Source of the DNA: an uncultured Chthonomonadaceae bacterium
GTDB taxonomy: Bacteria > Armatimonadota > Chthonomonadetes > Chthonomonadales > Chthonomonadaceae
DNA: 64,000 bases
Direction: 5' to 3'
NCBI GenBank assembly: GCA_963835065.1
Contig: CAWIEK010000043.1
Location: 10,693 to 74,692, forward strand
Positions within the stretch are counted from its first letter, which is position 1. Each line of letters opens with the position of its first letter. Positions 13,216 to 63,120 of the stretch are shown here, piece after piece. The position numbers and the translations under genes are program-made. The notes beneath the pieces are model-generated. The model worked only from the letters and a program-made list of their open reading frames with translations, was not told where the DNA came from and ran no database searches.

Positions 13216-14530
13216 ATGCTGACACGCCGCAAACTGCTGCAAGCCACTGCGCTGACTACATTGGGAATGAACGCTATGACCGAGACTGCCGAAGCGTCCC
13301 TTCGCGCCGAGGCTTTGCCTGTCTGCCGATGCTCTGCCTTCCACCGGAACTTTCAATCCTGACCTGCAAAGTTTCGACGACACCATGACGGAATTTATGC
13401 AGAAGCGCAATGTTCCGGGCGGGGCGCTTGCGGTCGTGAAGGACGGGAAGTTGGTGTATGCGCGGGGGTATGGGTACGCGGACAAGGACGCGGGGCAGCG
13501 CGTTCAGCCCGGTTCGCTGTTTCGTATCGCCAGCATTTCCAAGCCGATTACCGCTGTGGCGATTATGACGCTGGTACAAAACCCGCGTACCAAACTGACG
13601 CTGGATACCCGCGTGTTTCCCCTGCTCGGCCTCGCGCCGCATCTGGAACCCGGCGCGAAATTCGACCCGCGCCTCGACGCTATCACCGTCCGCAACCTGC
13701 TTCAGCATACGGGCGGCTGGGACCGGGACAAGTCCGGCGACCCGATGTTCATGCCGCTTGAAATCGCCCATGCTGTCGGTACGCCCGCGCCCGCCGACCC
13801 TCACGCGATTATCCGCTACATGCTCGGAAAACTTCTGGACACCGATCCCGGTACGCGCTACGCTTACTCCAACTTCGGCTATTGCGTGTTGGGGCGCGTG
13901 ATCGAAAAGGTGACGGGCCTGCCTTATGGAACTTATGTGCAGCAAAATGTTCTCGCGCCCCTGCACATCCACAACATGGCTTTGGGACGTTCGCTGCGCA
14001 AGTACCGGCACCCAAACGAGGTTTGCTACTATCAGCCCGGCGCAACCACCACGTCGGTTTTCCCGGAGTCAAAGGGCGAAGAAGTTTCCTGGTGCTACGG
14101 CGGCTTCAACCTTGAAGCGCTGGACGCGCACGGCGGCTGGCTGTCGTCAGCGGTTGATCTGGTTCGTTTTGCGAGTGGATTGGACGCGCCGCAGGGCAAG
14201 CCGCTGCTGACGCCCGAAAGCGCTCGCGCCATGTACGCCCGTCCCGAATCCCTGACGAGCAAGGAGGACAAAACCAGCCCGGTATACTATGGCTTTGGGT
14301 GGCAGGTGCGCGAAGTGGGAACTGAAGCGCAGAATCGGCGCAACATCTGGCACACGGGCAGCCTGCCGGGTACAAGCACCTGGCTGATTCGCCGCTGGGA
14401 CGGCCTGACCTGGGCCGCGCTGTTCAATCAGCGTTCGGAGTCGGACGGCGAAATTGACAGCGCCCTGCATGTTGCCGCCGACAAAGTAAAAATCTGGCCC
14501 GCAGGCGATCTGTTCAACAGGAACGGGTGA
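13216..14530 (+). CDS. Tat-exported serine hydrolase, beta-lactamase family (one apparent frameshift near 13330)
   Basis: LTRRKLL Tat signal in an upstream frame; FRIASISK, YSNFGY, WHTGS. Confidence 0.85.
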
Positions 14531-14588
14531 TGAATGATGAATGATGAGTGATGAATGGAATTCTGATTCATCGTTCAGCACTCAGCAT
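14528..14588. repeat. Heptamer repeat hairpin (TGATGAA/TTCAGCA type)
   Basis: tgatgaatgatgaatgatgagtgatgaat...attcatcgttcagcactcagca. Confidence 0.8.
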
Positions 14589-14654
14589 TATCGCGCTAAT
14601 CAGGAGTTTACTTGAAATTCTCAGTCACGGTGACGGAGTACGTGGGCAGCAGGG

Positions 14655-14920
14655 GCGATGCCTCTAAAGGGGAAGGGAATATATAGAGGCATCGTCGAAA
14701 TCTTGGCAATACAGCGCTTCCAGCCCGATGTCTCGTTGTGTCAGATTGTAGGAGAGAGGCGTCGTGACCTCGTAAGCGTCAGGGCGAACGGGGAGAGGGT
14801 ACAGGCATCTTCTTTGCACCTCCCTTCCGGGTTAGATTGTTGCGAGTTGCGAGTTCCTCATTGCGAGGAACTCCGAACTTTCAACGGCTCGCCACCTGGC
14901 TGATTAGTAGACGTGTGTAA
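14655..14920 (-). ncRNA. Candidate structured ncRNA / micro-ORF transcript, copy 1
   Basis: Block-wise identity to 48104-48360 (52 nt identical at 14693-14744), ECF-type promoter, terminal hairpin 14656-14694. Confidence 0.65.
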
Positions 14921-14924
14921 GTGT

Positions 14925-14952
14925 TTAGACGAGATGGAGGCCAAAAAGGTTC
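14925..14952 (-). promoter_or_regulatory. ECF-type promoter GAACC-N16-CGTCTAA
   Basis: Boxes and spacing identical to 48070-48097 while the spacer differs. Confidence 0.65.
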
Positions 14953-15092
14953 GTTGTTTCTGTGATTTCTGCCAATATTTTTCTACATATTTTTCTACTT
15001 TTTGGCGTGTTCTTTGTGGCTGTGGCAACCTGCTCTGTTTCGGTATAGGCAATTGTTTGCCGCGCGTCCAAGTGGAAGTCTGGAACATCGTT

Positions 15093-16322
15093 ATGCTGGA
15101 AGCCTTTCCGCAACAAAGCAATTCCTACACCCGACGCGAACACTGGTTCGCTCTCCTCCTTGCCGCCTCGCTCACAGGAGTCGTTTTGTGCAGGACGCAT
15201 TTGCTGACAGATGCTCATCCCGCGTTCGCCCTATCAATTGACCACCACAAATACCTCTACATGGCGCAAGAGCCGTTGACCTTTCATGTCGCGCCTTTTT
15301 GCTGGCGCATACTGGTTCCGCTGCTGGCGCGGGCGCTGCCGTTCCCGCTTGCCACAAACTTCCTGCTGATTAGTGTGGTCGCCGTTTGTCTGATGGGAAG
15401 CGGGATGGTGCGCCTCGCCAGGAATTTAGGACACACGGACACGCTGGCTTTTAGCGCGGCGAGCCTGCTGTTTACGGTGGGATGGGCCACGAAGTTTGTG
15501 CTGCAAGATTTCTGGCTGCCCGATGCGCTGGCGTTTTGCCTGACGGTCTGGGCTATGGTTTGCCTCGTAGAGAGGAGAACACTTGCGTTTGTCGTTCTGC
15601 TCACGGTCGGCGTGTGCGTGAAAGAGAGTGTCTTCTTCGTCGGCCCGCTTTGCTTTCATTTTCTGCCGGAGGAGCTACGCGGGTGGCGGCGCTGGAAACG
15701 GACACTACAAATGCTGCTGCCTGCCGTGCTGACAATCGCCGCCCTGCATGGAGCCATTCCTGCCCGCAACAGCGACGCCGCCTATATGGCTTCGCTACCC
15801 CAACAATTGCGGGACGTTCAGCCCGGACTGCATTCTTATGCGCCCGGTGAGTTGTTCGCCTTGAATGGAGCGCCGCGCCTTCAACACGTTACCCTGCATG
15901 ATCTCTCTCGCTATACACTCGGCACTTTCGGCGTCCTGATGGTTGCTTTGCCTTGTCTGGCCGCGCGAAATCGGCATGTGTTATGGCAGTTCGCCCCGTT
16001 TCTGCTGTTGGTGTACGCCCAGATATTATTTGCTTCCAATGTCGAGCGTCTGGCGGCAGCCGGATTTCCGGTGTTTATTCTAATGGCTATGAACGGCTTG
16101 GAAAGCGTCCAAAAACACTTTGCGCTTCCCGAATGGTTGCTGGTTCTTTTGCCCCTGCCCTTTGTGGCACTCATTCTGATTGACATAGACCGGAAGCAGG
16201 CTCCCTTAGCTGTACAGGGTGGGCTGTTTTGCGGCCTTGTCGTCACCCTTATAGGCTGGCATCTGCTGGCTCGAAAATTTCCCCTCAATTCAAAGGCTGC
16301 ACGTTCTGATACGTCAAAATGA
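15093..16322 (+). CDS. Polytopic membrane protein, possibly GT-C-like
   Basis: ~10 hydrophobic segments; PFCWRILVP, PDAL, VKES motifs. Confidence 0.65.
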   Translation: MLEAFPQQSNSYTRREHWFALLLAASLTGVVLCRTHLLTDAHPAFALSIDHHKYLYMAQEPLTFHVAPFCWRILVPLLARALPFPLATNFLLISVVAVCLMGSGMVRLARNLGHTDTLAFSAASLLFTVGWATKFVLQDFWLPDALAFCLTVWAMVCLVERRTLAFVVLLTVGVCVKESVFFVGPLCFHFLPEELRGWRRWKRTLQMLLPAVLTIAALHGAIPARNSDAAYMASLPQQLRDVQPGLHSYAPGELFALNGAPRLQHVTLHDLSRYTLGTFGVLMVALPCLAARNRHVLWQFAPFLLLVYAQILFASNVERLAAAGFPVFILMAMNGLESVQKHFALPEWLLVLLPLPFVALILIDIDRKQAPLAVQGGLFCGLVVTLIGWHLLARKFPLNSKAARSDTSK

Positions 16323-16341
16323 ATTCGGCGTTACGGCGCTT

Positions 16342-16470
16342 ATGCGGAGCGCCGAAAGAAGCAACGCGGAACTAACCAAGTTTCTTCTTGAAAGCGGAGC
16401 GGAAGTCAACGCCCGAACGAGACACGGGGAAATGGCTTTTATTGAGGCGGCTAAGACGGATCAAACGGCT
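16342..16470 (+). pseudogene. Ankyrin-repeat fragment
   Basis: LTKFLLESGAEVNAR...G..A. Confidence 0.45.
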
Positions 16471-16531
16471 ACGATAGAGAAGCCCCGGCGTTTATGCCTG
16501 AGGAGCAGTCACCTTCCCGTAATGTTGACAG

Positions 16532-16559
16532 TTTAGGCAGGGGCGGCGTATACCGATAA
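16532..16559 (+). promoter_or_regulatory. Putative sigma28 promoter TTTA-N16-ACCGATAA
   Basis: Close to GCCGATAA -10; same spacing as the flgM and DGC promoters. Confidence 0.45.
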
Positions 16560-40502: not shown

Positions 40503-40516
40503 TACTTGTGTGTGAT

Positions 40517-40645
40517 GAGGTACAGGTAAATCCATAGAAATGTGGAGACACAAAGCCATGGGCCTAAGAGGAGATTATGCAGCGACGCGCTTTAGCGCCC
40601 GCTGCGATGCCGCAGACTCCAGATGGTCGCCAGGTTGCCGTACTC
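40517..40645 (+). ncRNA. c-di-GMP-I (GEMM) riboswitch with extended P3
   Basis: GGTAAA-TCCATA-GAAA-TGTGGA-GACACAAAGCCATGGGCCTAAG...ATGGTCGCCAGGTTGCC, flanked by gaggtac/gtactc. Confidence 0.85.
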
Positions 40646-47659: not shown

Positions 47660-47953
47660 TCATCCATTGGAAATACCATGCTTGGCGCGGAACTCGGCAA
47701 ACACTTCATCGGCAGGACGCCCTTCGCCCCGCTCCATTTGCTCCAGACCGCGTCTGATACCTTCCAGTGCGTCTGCCTGCCCCACACGCTCCAGCATAGC
47801 CTGATAGCTTTCGGCGTCCTGTACCACAAGCGTGGCTTTGCCGTTGACGGTCAGCACAACAGGCGCTTTCGTCTCCTGCATCTGCTTCACAAAGTCGTTG
47901 GTATTGCGCTTGAAGTCCGTGAGCGATTGGATGTCGCGGCTTATATTGATCAT
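47660..47953 (-). CDS. Phd/YefM-family antitoxin
   Basis: DIQSLTDFKRNT, PVVLTVNGKA.LVVQDAESYQ. Confidence 0.92.
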   Translation of the reverse strand: MINISRDIQSLTDFKRNTNDFVKQMQETKAPVVLTVNGKATLVVQDAESYQAMLERVGQADALEGIRRGLEQMERGEGRPADEVFAEFRAKHGISNG

Positions 47954-48069
47954 AGCATTGTCTCCCTGCGCACCCAATAAGATGTTGAAAAGATGTTATC
48001 AGATTGTACTCTGAATATCAAAATTTCGCAAAATAGTAGAAAAATATCTGGTTAAACAGCAGAAATAAC

Positions 48070-48097
48070 GAACCTTTTCTGCCTCTTCCTCGTCTAA
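48070..48097 (+). promoter_or_regulatory. ECF-type promoter GAACC-N16-CGTCTAA
   Basis: Same boxes and spacing as 14925-14952. Confidence 0.65.
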
Positions 48098-48103
48098 ATA
48101 CAC

Positions 48104-48360
48104 ATGCACGTCTACTAAATAGATGTGCTAACGAGCCAGGTGGCGGGCCGTTGGAAGTTCGGAGTTCTTCTCCACTCTCAACAATCTAACCTGGAAGGGA
48201 GGTGCTGGAAGATGCCTGTACACTCTCCCCGTTCGCCCTGACGCTGCGGAGGCCAAGATGCCTCATCTTAATACAACCTGACACAACGAGACATCGGGCT
48301 GGAAGCGCTGTATTGCCAAGATTTCGACGCTGTCTCTACATACTCTTTTTCTTTTTCCGT
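48104..48360 (+). ncRNA. Candidate structured ncRNA / micro-ORF transcript, copy 2
   Basis: Block-wise identity to copy 1; 52-nt identical core 48278-48329; T-rich 3' end. Confidence 0.65.
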
Positions 48361-48404
48361 TTCAAGGTTCCTGCCCTGAGCGCCCCTACACTTTCACGCT
48401 GGTT

Positions 48405-53160: not shown

Positions 53161-54100
53161 TTATACTATTGCGCTTGAGAAACAATCCTGCTCCTCGTCT
53201 TGGTCCAGCCATTGCATCGGGATTTGCGCGACCTTTTCGCGTCCGGTCGGCTTGTGAACGGGTTTACCCAAGGGCCTTACTTTCAAAGCCCCATTATGAA
53301 GAGCAACCAGATCGTTCCTTTGCAATCCGGCAGTAGTCGGCGTCACGGTCAATACCGACGGCTTTGCGCCCTTGCTTGGCGGCGGCAATCAGCGAACTGC
53401 CAACACCCGCGAACGGATCCAATATCCAGTCGCCGGGGTTGGTAAAAGCGAGTACGTAGCGTTCGGCCAACTCAACGGGAAATTGGCACGGATGAATGGT
53501 TTTCTCGCAGTGGTTGGACTTGACGTTGGGTATGTCCCATACGCCGCTTTCCCACTCCTGCGCCAACAACTCCCAAAAATCAGACGGGTTTTTGCCCAAT
53601 GGATTGCCGCTCGGCTGTCCTTTTTTATCTCCTTTAAAATGTAGCTTACCGGGATATTTGGAAGGAACGCGAACGGCATCAAGATTAAAAGTGTAAGCAT
53701 CGGAGCGCGTAAACCAGAGCAACGTTTCATATCTGCCGGAAAAGCGGTGCGAGGCATGAAGCCCATGATCGAAGCGCCAAACCACCCGATTGCGCAACTT
53801 CAACCCCAACTCTTTGAAAACAGGATAAAAGTAGACGTCGAGCGGAAACACTTCGCCGTTTTCCACATAGTTACCGACTTGCCAGCACAAACTGCCTGTC
53901 GGCGCAAGTAAGGGTATAAGCTGCCGAATGATTTGCGTCTGCGCGTCGAGGTATTGTGTAAGCGTGGTCTGCTGTTCGTACTGCTTGCCGATGTTATAGG
54001 GCGGTGAGGTGAGAATCAGGGAAAAGAATTCGCGCGGCAATTGGCGACATGCTTCCCGCGCGTCCGCGTTCAGCATAGCAAAGGACTGCTCCGGCGACAA
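53161..54100 (-). CDS. Site-specific DNA methyltransferase, M.BglII-like N4-C/N6-A family (apparent frameshift near 53310)
   Basis: TSPPYN, HPCQFP, DPFAGVGS; C-terminal LKVRPLGKPVH in another frame. Confidence 0.88.
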
Positions 54101-54182
54101 AGCGTCTTGAACCTGTATGGACGTGTCTTCAAGTAAGTTTATTGGTGTTGAGTTTACCTGAAAACGACAAAGCCCTGCATCG

Positions 54183-55025
54183 GTGACTGCTCCCCACAGG
54201 TAAACCTGGGGGCTTCTCTCCTGTCAAGCAGGAACGGTGTGCAGTCCCACACCGATTTTGAGAATGTTCCGAGCGGCGTTCACATCGCGCTGCAGCACAA
54301 GCCCACAGCATGAACAGACGTGAACGCGCTCGGACAATTTCTTAGGCGCACGGTGTCCACAGGCCGAGCAGTCTTGACTGGTGTATGCGGGATAGACGGC
54401 TATCACTGTTCTCGCAGCTCTTTCAGCCTTCGAGGTCAGGACAGCGCGAAACATACTCCAGGCGGCATCGGCGATGGACTTGGCAAGGCAGTGGTTCTGG
54501 ACCATGCCGGTGATGTGGAGGGCTTCGACGGCAATCACGCCGAAGCAGTTGACCAGCTTACGAGCGGCCTGATGAACAAAGTCATGTCTGCGATTTCGGA
54601 TGCGTTCATGGATGCGCGACACGACCTTGTTGGCCTTGCGCCGCGCTGCCTTTTGTTCCTTTGTGCGGGCGTGTTTGAACTTGTCGGCTTTGCGCTGCGC
54701 TTTTGCAAGCGCCTTTTCGTCCTTACGAAACTTGAAAAGCAAGGTCAACGCGCTTGACGACATCTTGCAACACCTGCGAATAGAGTTCGCACAGTTCAGG
54801 ATGCGCTTTTTTCCACAGCGGTAAAATGTTCTGCTGTTGCCGGTAAGTAGGACTTGTGCCGTGTACTTCAAAGTCGTGCTTGCGCCAGGCTGCCATGCTG
54901 TTGTAGACATCACGGGCAAGCGAAAGCATGTGCCGCAATTTCGTTTCCTGCGCGGCAGTCGGGTAGAGACGGTACTTAATCGCAAGTCTGGTCATACCCT
55001 GTTATACCAGACGGACGTACAATTC
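54183..55025 (-). mobile_element. tnpB: IS200/IS605-family solo-tnpB element with internally deleted tnpB
   Basis: KYRLYPT N-terminus (54995) joined out of frame to IAVE/TSQDCSACG/RDVNAARNI; right-end hairpin ending TCAC at 54183; TTGAC at 55026-55030. Confidence 0.88.

Positions 55026-60129: not shown

Positions 60130-60133
<4 letters not shown>
60036..60133. repeat. Heptamer repeat hairpin (TAGTTGA/TCAACTA) between convergent genes
   Basis: agttgatagttgatagttcc...ggaactatcaactatcaact. Confidence 0.9.

Positions 60134-63120
<2,987 letters not shown>

Follow-up and report, generated by a model that had tools for sequence, protein, structure and literature searches.

The window analysed here, a 64,000-nt stretch of an uncultured Chthonomonadaceae genome, carries two copies of a short, promoter-bearing intergenic element that occurs 162 times in the source genome (G000; 8.0 Mb, 92% complete), a count returned both by blastn with the element core and by an nhmmer profile. 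The original prediction had described a two-copy paralog pair, which falls far short of this number. The element family is real and fits under no known family; its constituent parts are already known, from MITE shells and REP2, from Pro-stop arrest and from CreT. Downstream of the promoter and leader, the order of parts is a Shine-Dalgarno (SD) block, a micro-ORF with its stop codon, 7 nt, hairpin 1, an A/C-rich linker, hairpin 2, the trinucleotide ATA and a pyrimidine tail.

The two window copies

All of the sequence blocks reported as shared between two intergenic regions of the window are present in both, and the 52-nt identical block is exact (14693-14744 = 48278-48329); sharing of this extent far exceeds chance. 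The GTAGAAAAATAT box is tandem at 14975-14998 in copy 1 and single at 48036 in copy 2, the GAACC-N16-CGTCTAA motif lies at 14948-14952/14925-14931 and 48070-48074/48091-48097, and the 30-nt ORF at 14779-14808 and 48212-48241, respectively. The features of both copies are as follows.

14650-14668, minus strand: copy 1 right-hand ISAs1-type terminal inverted repeat, without a surviving left end (matches ends of ISAs1 transposase elements in G002)
14669-14685, minus strand: copy 1 conserved ATA end and pyrimidine-rich tail, the likely RNA 3' end (from sequence)
14686-14734, minus strand: copy 1 hairpin 2, a long irregular stem with near-invariant apical sequence at 14704-14717 (alignment, pair counts)
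14735-14755, minus strand: copy 1 A/C-rich single-stranded linker (alignment)
14756-14771, minus strand: copy 1 hairpin 1, 7 nt past the stop codon (spacing count; compensatory pair in G001 subfamily)
14779-14808, minus strand: copy 1 micro-ORF MPVPSPRSP-stop (synonymous variation over three species)
14816-14828, minus strand: copy 1 Shine-Dalgarno block (sequence)
14829-14918, minus strand: copy 1 optional 5' leader, subfamily A, with TGGCGR block (leader block in 32/162 copies; start site predicted)
14925-14952, minus strand: copy 1 putative ECF-type promoter, -35 GAACC at 14948-14952 and -10 CGTCTAA at 14925-14931 (motif in 150/162 copies)
14953-15030, minus strand: copy 1 A-tract upstream region and MITE body remnant (outer limit approximate)
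48036-48097, plus strand: copy 2 A-rich box and putative ECF-type promoter, -35 at 48070-48074 and -10 at 48091-48097
48104-48205, plus strand: copy 2 leader (start predicted) and Shine-Dalgarno block at 48193-48205
48212-48241, plus strand: copy 2 micro-ORF MPVHSPRSP-stop
48249-48264, plus strand: copy 2 hairpin 1
48288-48342, plus strand: copy 2 hairpin 2 with invariant loop at 48305-48318, and conserved end
48360-48378, plus strand: copy 2 degenerate right ISAs1-type terminal repeat (compared with known ISAs1 ends)

Several other features of the window were noted. A heptamer-repeat hairpin 3' of a serine hydrolase gene (14527-14590) is like the short tandem repeats in many element leaders and tails; a 2-kb segment (14523-16554) holding copy 1 and a 469-aa ORF with no Pfam match is missing at the matching G002 site; and a Phd/YefM antitoxin gene (47660-47977, minus strand) adjoins copy 2 with no evident toxin partner beside it and has a homolog in G002. 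The sole Rfam match in the window is a c-di-GMP-I riboswitch (40515-40642, plus strand) with a 44-nt insertion in its second stem, of which a relative's contig is present in the metatranscriptome. At 53294-54985 (minus strand) a short TnpB/Cas12f-like ORF (253 aa) lies directly upstream of an N6/N4 DNA methylase gene, and at 60130-62548 (minus strand) valyl-tRNA synthetase domains are split over two overlapping ORFs in different frames, reflecting a frameshift or an assembly error.

Distribution of the family

A covariance model built from 40 copies matched 3 of 42 family genomes, namely G000 and two members of the same Chthonomonadaceae genus, G002 with at least 47 copies and G001 with at least 13 (89 candidates scored per genome), and did not find the element in the other 39. 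Across 151 phylum genomes G000 alone was matched, besides one E=0.02 match within coding-like sequence that we judge to be chance. A pattern scan covering 34 of 64 parts placed 29 of the 35 matches listed in Chthonomonadaceae loci and six elsewhere, and the four of these six that were inspected are without the element core; named records with the pattern carry a Chthonomonadaceae label. Pattern scans of metagenomes returned no matches and later three chance matches, and a scan of viral contigs returned none. Rfam searches at gathering and at E-value thresholds gave no match to the element. In a metatranscriptome, one 197-nt contig of a relative (<90% alike; share of words 0.08) lies wholly within the predicted RNA, corresponding to window 14694-14895 and 48140-48328; it is left out as expression evidence because contigs cannot demonstrate transcription. 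A search of the open-access literature, with subscription journals largely outside it, returned no comparable multicopy element and no multicopy, selected, self-spacing mini-ORF RNA family.

Promoter, leader and folding

A GAACC/GAAAC-type -35, a spacer of 16-18 nt and a GTCT-type -10, with A-tracts upstream, precede 150 of the 162 copies; the boxes are conserved and the spacer between them drifts. The promoter is putatively assigned to the ECF class by its likeness to sigma-E motifs. A candidate ECF sigma gene of G000 (G000:C44:302719-303339) has the same motif upstream, which supports that assignment. Part of the relatives' copies instead carry a promoter of sigma-70-like type. The term 'stress-induced' in the original prediction would follow from the promoter motif alone.

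Leader length ranges from 14 to 171 nt, and the predicted window transcripts fold at shuffle level (z -1.0 and -0.3). The proposed closing stem between 5' and 3' blocks is not a family-wide feature: the TGGCGR leader occurs in 32/162 copies and the A-rich box in 25/162, and pairing of long leaders with the TTGCCA loop (-9.3 kcal/mol) is no stronger than that of a reversed-leader control (-10.3 kcal/mol; 83 copies). Pairing of the leader with the ORF end or loop, and of the SD with the ORF, was rejected, reversed controls being equally good, as was pairing of the SD with the 3' tail, just 0.2 kcal/mol better than mismatched pairs.

The micro-ORF and its peptide end

ATG-started ORFs in G000 end in [S/P/A]-Pro-stop in 155 of 160 copies, the other five being frameshifted, and 152 of the 160 are 8 or 9 codons long. 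The C-termini are RSP (115), RPP (25), HPP (6), LPP (5) and RAP (4), such that Arg precedes in 144 of the 155 and the remaining 11 are HPP or LPP; all 11 non-Arg variants keep Pro-Pro, though these copies are related rather than independent. Pro-Pro-stop thus accounts for 36/160 copies vs 115 for Ser-Pro-stop. Two further G000 copies have an ATT start and an RPP end, and a few copies have a CTG, TTG, GTG or ATT start or an internal stop. A Pro-stop end is found in 42 of 44 scored G002 copies and a Pro-Pro-stop end in 13/13 G001 copies. Arg, Pro and stop codons differ among copies and species, with synonymous change and the peptide end kept; the ORF is selected as a peptide. Some of the peptides may resemble the insect proline-rich peptides that trap release factors.

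Host proteins avoid the element's C-terminal motifs. Among 5,270 predicted G000 proteins of at least 150 aa, taken from simple gene calls, R[SPA]P-stop occurs 0 times vs 4.0 expected and xPP-stop 6 times vs 26.4 expected; no such shortage affects non-Arg [SA]P-stop (53 times vs 48.3 expected).

Hairpins and constraint on the core

In 150 of 160 copies, 7 nt separate the stop codon from hairpin 1, and the apical sequence of hairpin 2, 14 nt long, is near-invariant. In a set of 196 distinct cores, with five divergent G001 copies outside it, 42 of 111 core columns are invariant. In a structure drawn by hand from the same sequences used to score it, 93.5% of cells are paired and 13 change on both sides (0/500 shuffles); few of these are independent compensatory events, because most stem from a single five-copy G001 subfamily, which includes a compensatory pair in hairpin 1. 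G-U variants in the stems fit the promoter strand. Differences between nearest-neighbour copies (106 pairs from 128 copies) reach 23% of sites in the promoter spacer and 28% in the post-stop spacer vs ~5% in the hairpins, and many sites show no difference at all; the -35 (7%) and -10 (2.5%) are similarly low, a conservation that is partly circular, copies having been chosen allowing 2 mismatches. Just one pair is identical, so the expansion is old. The original prediction is supported in its description of a promoter-bearing, structured small RNA unit outside Rfam with a real micro-ORF.

The core linker is not coding because its length varies by 1-3 nt, and a coding core or programmed read-through was rejected since this variation breaks the frame. 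A minus-strand REP/RAYT reading with a GTAG foot was also rejected, the tetranucleotide not being conserved in G001. Likenesses to hammerhead, HDV-like, tmRNA and T-box/T-loop RNAs, judged by eye against consensus sequences, were dropped; a normal tmRNA is present elsewhere in the genome.

Mobility and concerted evolution

Twelve of the 162 copies lie within 419-476-bp ISAs1 shells with both ends, six of them flanked by 10-bp target duplications (≤1 mismatch), and 16 more have a single ISAs1 end. Copy 1 and copy 2 themselves retain right ISAs1-type ends (14650-14668 and, degenerate, ~48360-48378), contrary to the earlier report of no terminal inverted repeats. ISAs1 transposase elements of G002 have ends identical to those of the shells; a search for an ISAs1 transposase in G000 (92% complete) and G001 came back empty. 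ISAzo13 ends occur on the right in 33 copies and on the left in 7, and a matching autonomous ISAzo13 element is present in G000.

For 10 of the 30 G002 copies with an alignable downstream flank, a G000 copy sits at the same junction, and the other 20 sites are empty in G000. One additional G002 copy shares its upstream flank with G000, and one G001 site is also shared; both window copies are absent from the matching G002 junctions. The core resembles an own-genome paralog more than its positional ortholog at every one of the 12 shared sites tested; that ortholog ranks anywhere from 2 to 159 among the 162 G000 copies, with the caveat that best-of-many paralog comparisons are biased. A simpler marker is the dinucleotide after the loop, which is AG in 153/162 G000 copies and 3/44 G002 copies, and at shared sites in 11/11 G000 copies and 1/11 of their G002 partners. 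Leaders, peptides and even promoter type (ECF vs sigma-70-like) are swapped at shared sites. Species-wise homogenisation of copies at shared sites is evident; DNA-level recombination between copies is its simplest reading, and parallel selection could mimic conversion.

Related loci were observed outside the window. A tandem pair at G000:C30:36969-38087 is divergent and G002-like, with an ATT start and no ECF promoter; of a truncated G002 copy (L172, G002:C14:637833-637943), hairpin 2 alone is left, and just its 3' part. MITEs of 80-95 bp that stand alone, with REP-like hairpins between ISAzo13 ends, occur genome-wide in G000 (e.g. C1:156877-156958). The first spacer of a CRISPR mini-array (G000:C44:542926-543080) contains a 14-nt word like the ISAs1 terminal repeat, which may be chance. 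Reverse transcriptases (RTs) were noted at L123, L124, L125 and L122: an RT of ~480-500 aa, putatively retron-type by its VTG motif, is encoded in all three carrier genomes, in G000 behind a SWIM/BRCT gene, and a second RT in G000 adjoins cas1.

Spacing and gene neighbourhood

The copies avoid one another. Within contigs, 1 of 105 gaps is shorter than 8 kb, and that one is a local tandem duplication, vs 22 expected (18 if the number of copies on each contig is kept constant, with at least 7 in every one of 2,000 simulations); nine gaps fall below 15 kb vs 39 expected, or 32 with per-contig counts fixed. Close gaps are depleted in both orientations, and a 139-copy control repeat is without the deficit (28 gaps <10 kb vs 20.7 expected). 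Copies within 2 kb of contig ends number 12 vs 5.7 expected, a mild excess that may conceal a few close pairs. Stretches of up to 217 kb are free of the element. Either an unrecognised exclusion mechanism or a role that depends on position may underlie this spacing.

Essentially every copy is intergenic and adjoins unrelated genes, with no downstream or neighbouring gene family exceeding 5 members around them. Of 161 copies, 99 face a convergent gene on their downstream side; where a copy lies within a run of co-directional genes, it is antisense 59 times vs sense 25 times.

Proposed mechanism and rival explanations

Tentatively, and with a confidence that stops a little short of even, we read the element as a sigma-switched ribosome-trapping RNA that would act in bulk and has been amplified to high dose. 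Switching on of an ECF sigma factor would lead to transcription of the dispersed copies from their promoters, and a ribosome initiating at the Shine-Dalgarno block would be captured on the 8-9 codon frame. It might then be held at Pro-stop, stalled at termination by the peptide together with hairpin 1 at the mRNA entry site; in ribosome geometry, a hairpin 7 nt past a stop codon in the A site would sit at that position. Hairpin 2 may be a stabiliser or a binding site for a partner molecule. The outcome would be a cell-wide brake on translation, as with the proline-codon toxin CreT, a growth-arrest benefit would keep most copies intact, and recombination between copies would be the homogenising process. 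Several points count against a trap acting in bulk: a diffusible RNA offers no reason for the mutual avoidance of copies, the prevailing end, RSP-stop (115/160), is not the Pro-Pro that CreT requires, and we identified no antitoxin or repressor for the element.

The deficit of close gaps, with none in the control repeat, is better explained if each copy acts locally, as a portable sigma-controlled promoter at which a ribosome, once stalled, would control termination (tnaC-like) and let antisense or read-through transcripts enter neighbouring genes or would mark chromosome domains, so that one copy per neighbourhood is enough. The excess of convergent downstream genes and of antisense placement, and the 10 of 30 alignable G002 copies with a G000 counterpart at the same junction, fit as well. 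Such a local switch accounts for spacing and orientation better than a bulk trap does, but not for the unrelated and often empty sites: no neighbouring gene family exceeds 5 members, G000 lacks the element at 20 of the 30 sites, neither window copy occurs at its matching G002 junction, element-free stretches extend to 217 kb, and part of the deficit may be close pairs hidden at contig ends. We regard it as unlikely, though worth keeping in view. The empty and filled sites are as for MITEs, and the family could be a passive passenger whose founder was spread by ISAs1 and ISAzo13 transposases, with similarity maintained by gene conversion and function in few or no copies. The shells, target duplications and single ends, the autonomous elements matching in G002 (ISAs1) and G000 (ISAzo13) and the homogenisation all agree with this, and the original prediction had named dozens of copies with target duplications as the mark of a MITE. 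This is borne out in part, in that the element has travelled in MITE shells; the interior, which in a passive MITE is expected to evolve without constraint, is under selection. Neutral spread or unbiased conversion would affect sites equally, yet invariant and near-saturated sites alternate in the core, the peptide end is kept through synonymous change, promoter and core persist while the ends erode, and no ISAs1 transposase was found in G000 or G001. A passive MITE is already disfavoured, and we consider it improbable.

Closest affinity to own-genome paralogs at 12/12 shared sites and the species-specific AG would also be expected of a self-promoting RNA, a bacterial SINE analogue whose stalled-ribosome RNA would draw in a reverse transcriptase or a recombination factor and overwrite or seed other copies; all three carrier genomes encode an RT, and the two non-carriers tested lack one. 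Against it, the element carries along its promoter, which precedes any transcript and is itself swapped at shared site L144, pointing to DNA-level exchange; the paralog comparisons carry the best-of-many bias, and parallel selection could produce the same pattern. Of the carrier RTs, one belongs to a SWIM/BRCT operon and the other is linked to Cas1; neither has an element copy beside it in the loci read, and a fitting RT partner is not supported. We find self-promotion very doubtful. The RNA polymerase decoy of 6S/Ms1 type suggested originally could fill a vacant role, canonical 6S (RF00013) having been found in none of the four genomes searched (G000, G001, G002 and G005). It is nonetheless extremely improbable for an RNA with shuffle-level folding and no stable rod, no Rfam match, 162 copies, a translated Pro-stop ORF as its most constrained part, and an optional closing stem that occurs in 32/162 copies and pairs no better than its control.

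The sigma-switched trap can be combined with the spacing in a more ambitious model, possible but on balance less probable than not by a clear measure: a chromosome-wide RNA device of ~160 sigma-switched ribosome traps with ~10-kb self-exclusion, kept uniform by concerted evolution, whose invariant-loop RNA domain would act on a ribosome stalled at Arg-x-Pro-stop (at the A site, release factor or rescue machinery), shutting down translation or organising it along the chromosome.

Comparison with known systems

The closest system is CreT, of Pseudomonas aeruginosa CreTA and of haloarchaea (PMC8501985), which shares the SD, mini-ORF and downstream hairpin, Pro directly before the stop and its own promoter. 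In CreT, SD, Pro-Pro-stop mini-ORF and hairpin are each required and translation and growth are halted reversibly; replacing either Pro abolishes toxicity, and of the hairpin the structure alone matters, a 15-nt shift being tolerated (bioRxiv 10.64898/2026.06.02.729485). Spacing and loop sequence are fixed in our element; therefore hairpin 2 would do something that CreT lacks. CreT is a single-locus gene beside cas genes, silenced by CreA-guided Cas, and needs Pro-Pro with hairpin position and sequence free, whereas the element occurs in 13-162 dispersed copies, ends mostly in R-S-P-stop, keeps its 7-nt spacing fixed, and has an ECF-type promoter and a second hairpin whose sequence is invariant. 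Among 87 array and 4 mini-array spacers no CreA-like guide was found; the matches are short and scattered, none recurring at the promoter. Without cas linkage or a CreA-like spacer, mostly Ser-Pro-stop and with a fixed second domain, the element is not a member of CreTA (type VIII toxin-antitoxin).

For peptides ending NSP-stop and NAP-stop, the stalled ribosome has the stop codon in its A site, and the same motif set includes RSPP, RPPP, RAP-stop and LPPP (PMC10987492). In RAPP arrest, RAP occupies the P site, and RxPP and R/HxPP are described as strong stallers under-represented in proteomes (PMC10951233); TnaC overexpression is reported to deplete tRNA-Pro (PMC11890864). The element resembles these arrest peptides in its C-terminal R-[S/A/P]-P, H-P-P or L-P-P, in a stop at the A-site position and in the rarity of the motifs in the host proteome. 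The RAPP-like and Pro-stop peptides are single uORFs serving a specific downstream gene, and most Sec/YidC ones are long and membrane-targeted; the element's peptide has 8-9 residues, no consistent downstream gene and high copy number.

Promoter-carrying MITEs and Neisseria REP2 (PMC3184786) are likewise intergenic and of high copy number, some family members having terminal inverted repeats with target duplications, and REP2 holds a promoter, ribosome-binding site and ATG within the repeat. The element differs from both in having two ends in just 12/162 copies, two unrelated IS vehicles and codon- and pair-level selection, and from REP2 in that its ORF stops internally rather than leading a host gene (PMC3184786). 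With 6S RNA and Ms1 it shares an intergenic position, a length of about 170-260 nt and its own promoter; unlike them it has no model match, no long rod with central bubble, a translated ORF and 162 copies. Known arrest peptides and CreT toxins are single-locus devices. If the trap reading is true, a ribosome-stalling RNA gene in 13-162 copies, borne by two unrelated transposon families, made uniform within each species and with its copies kept apart, would be a new route from mobile DNA to global regulator, and the family supplies over 200 naturally occurring versions of a minimal motif for arrest at termination, each followed by a hairpin at a fixed position.
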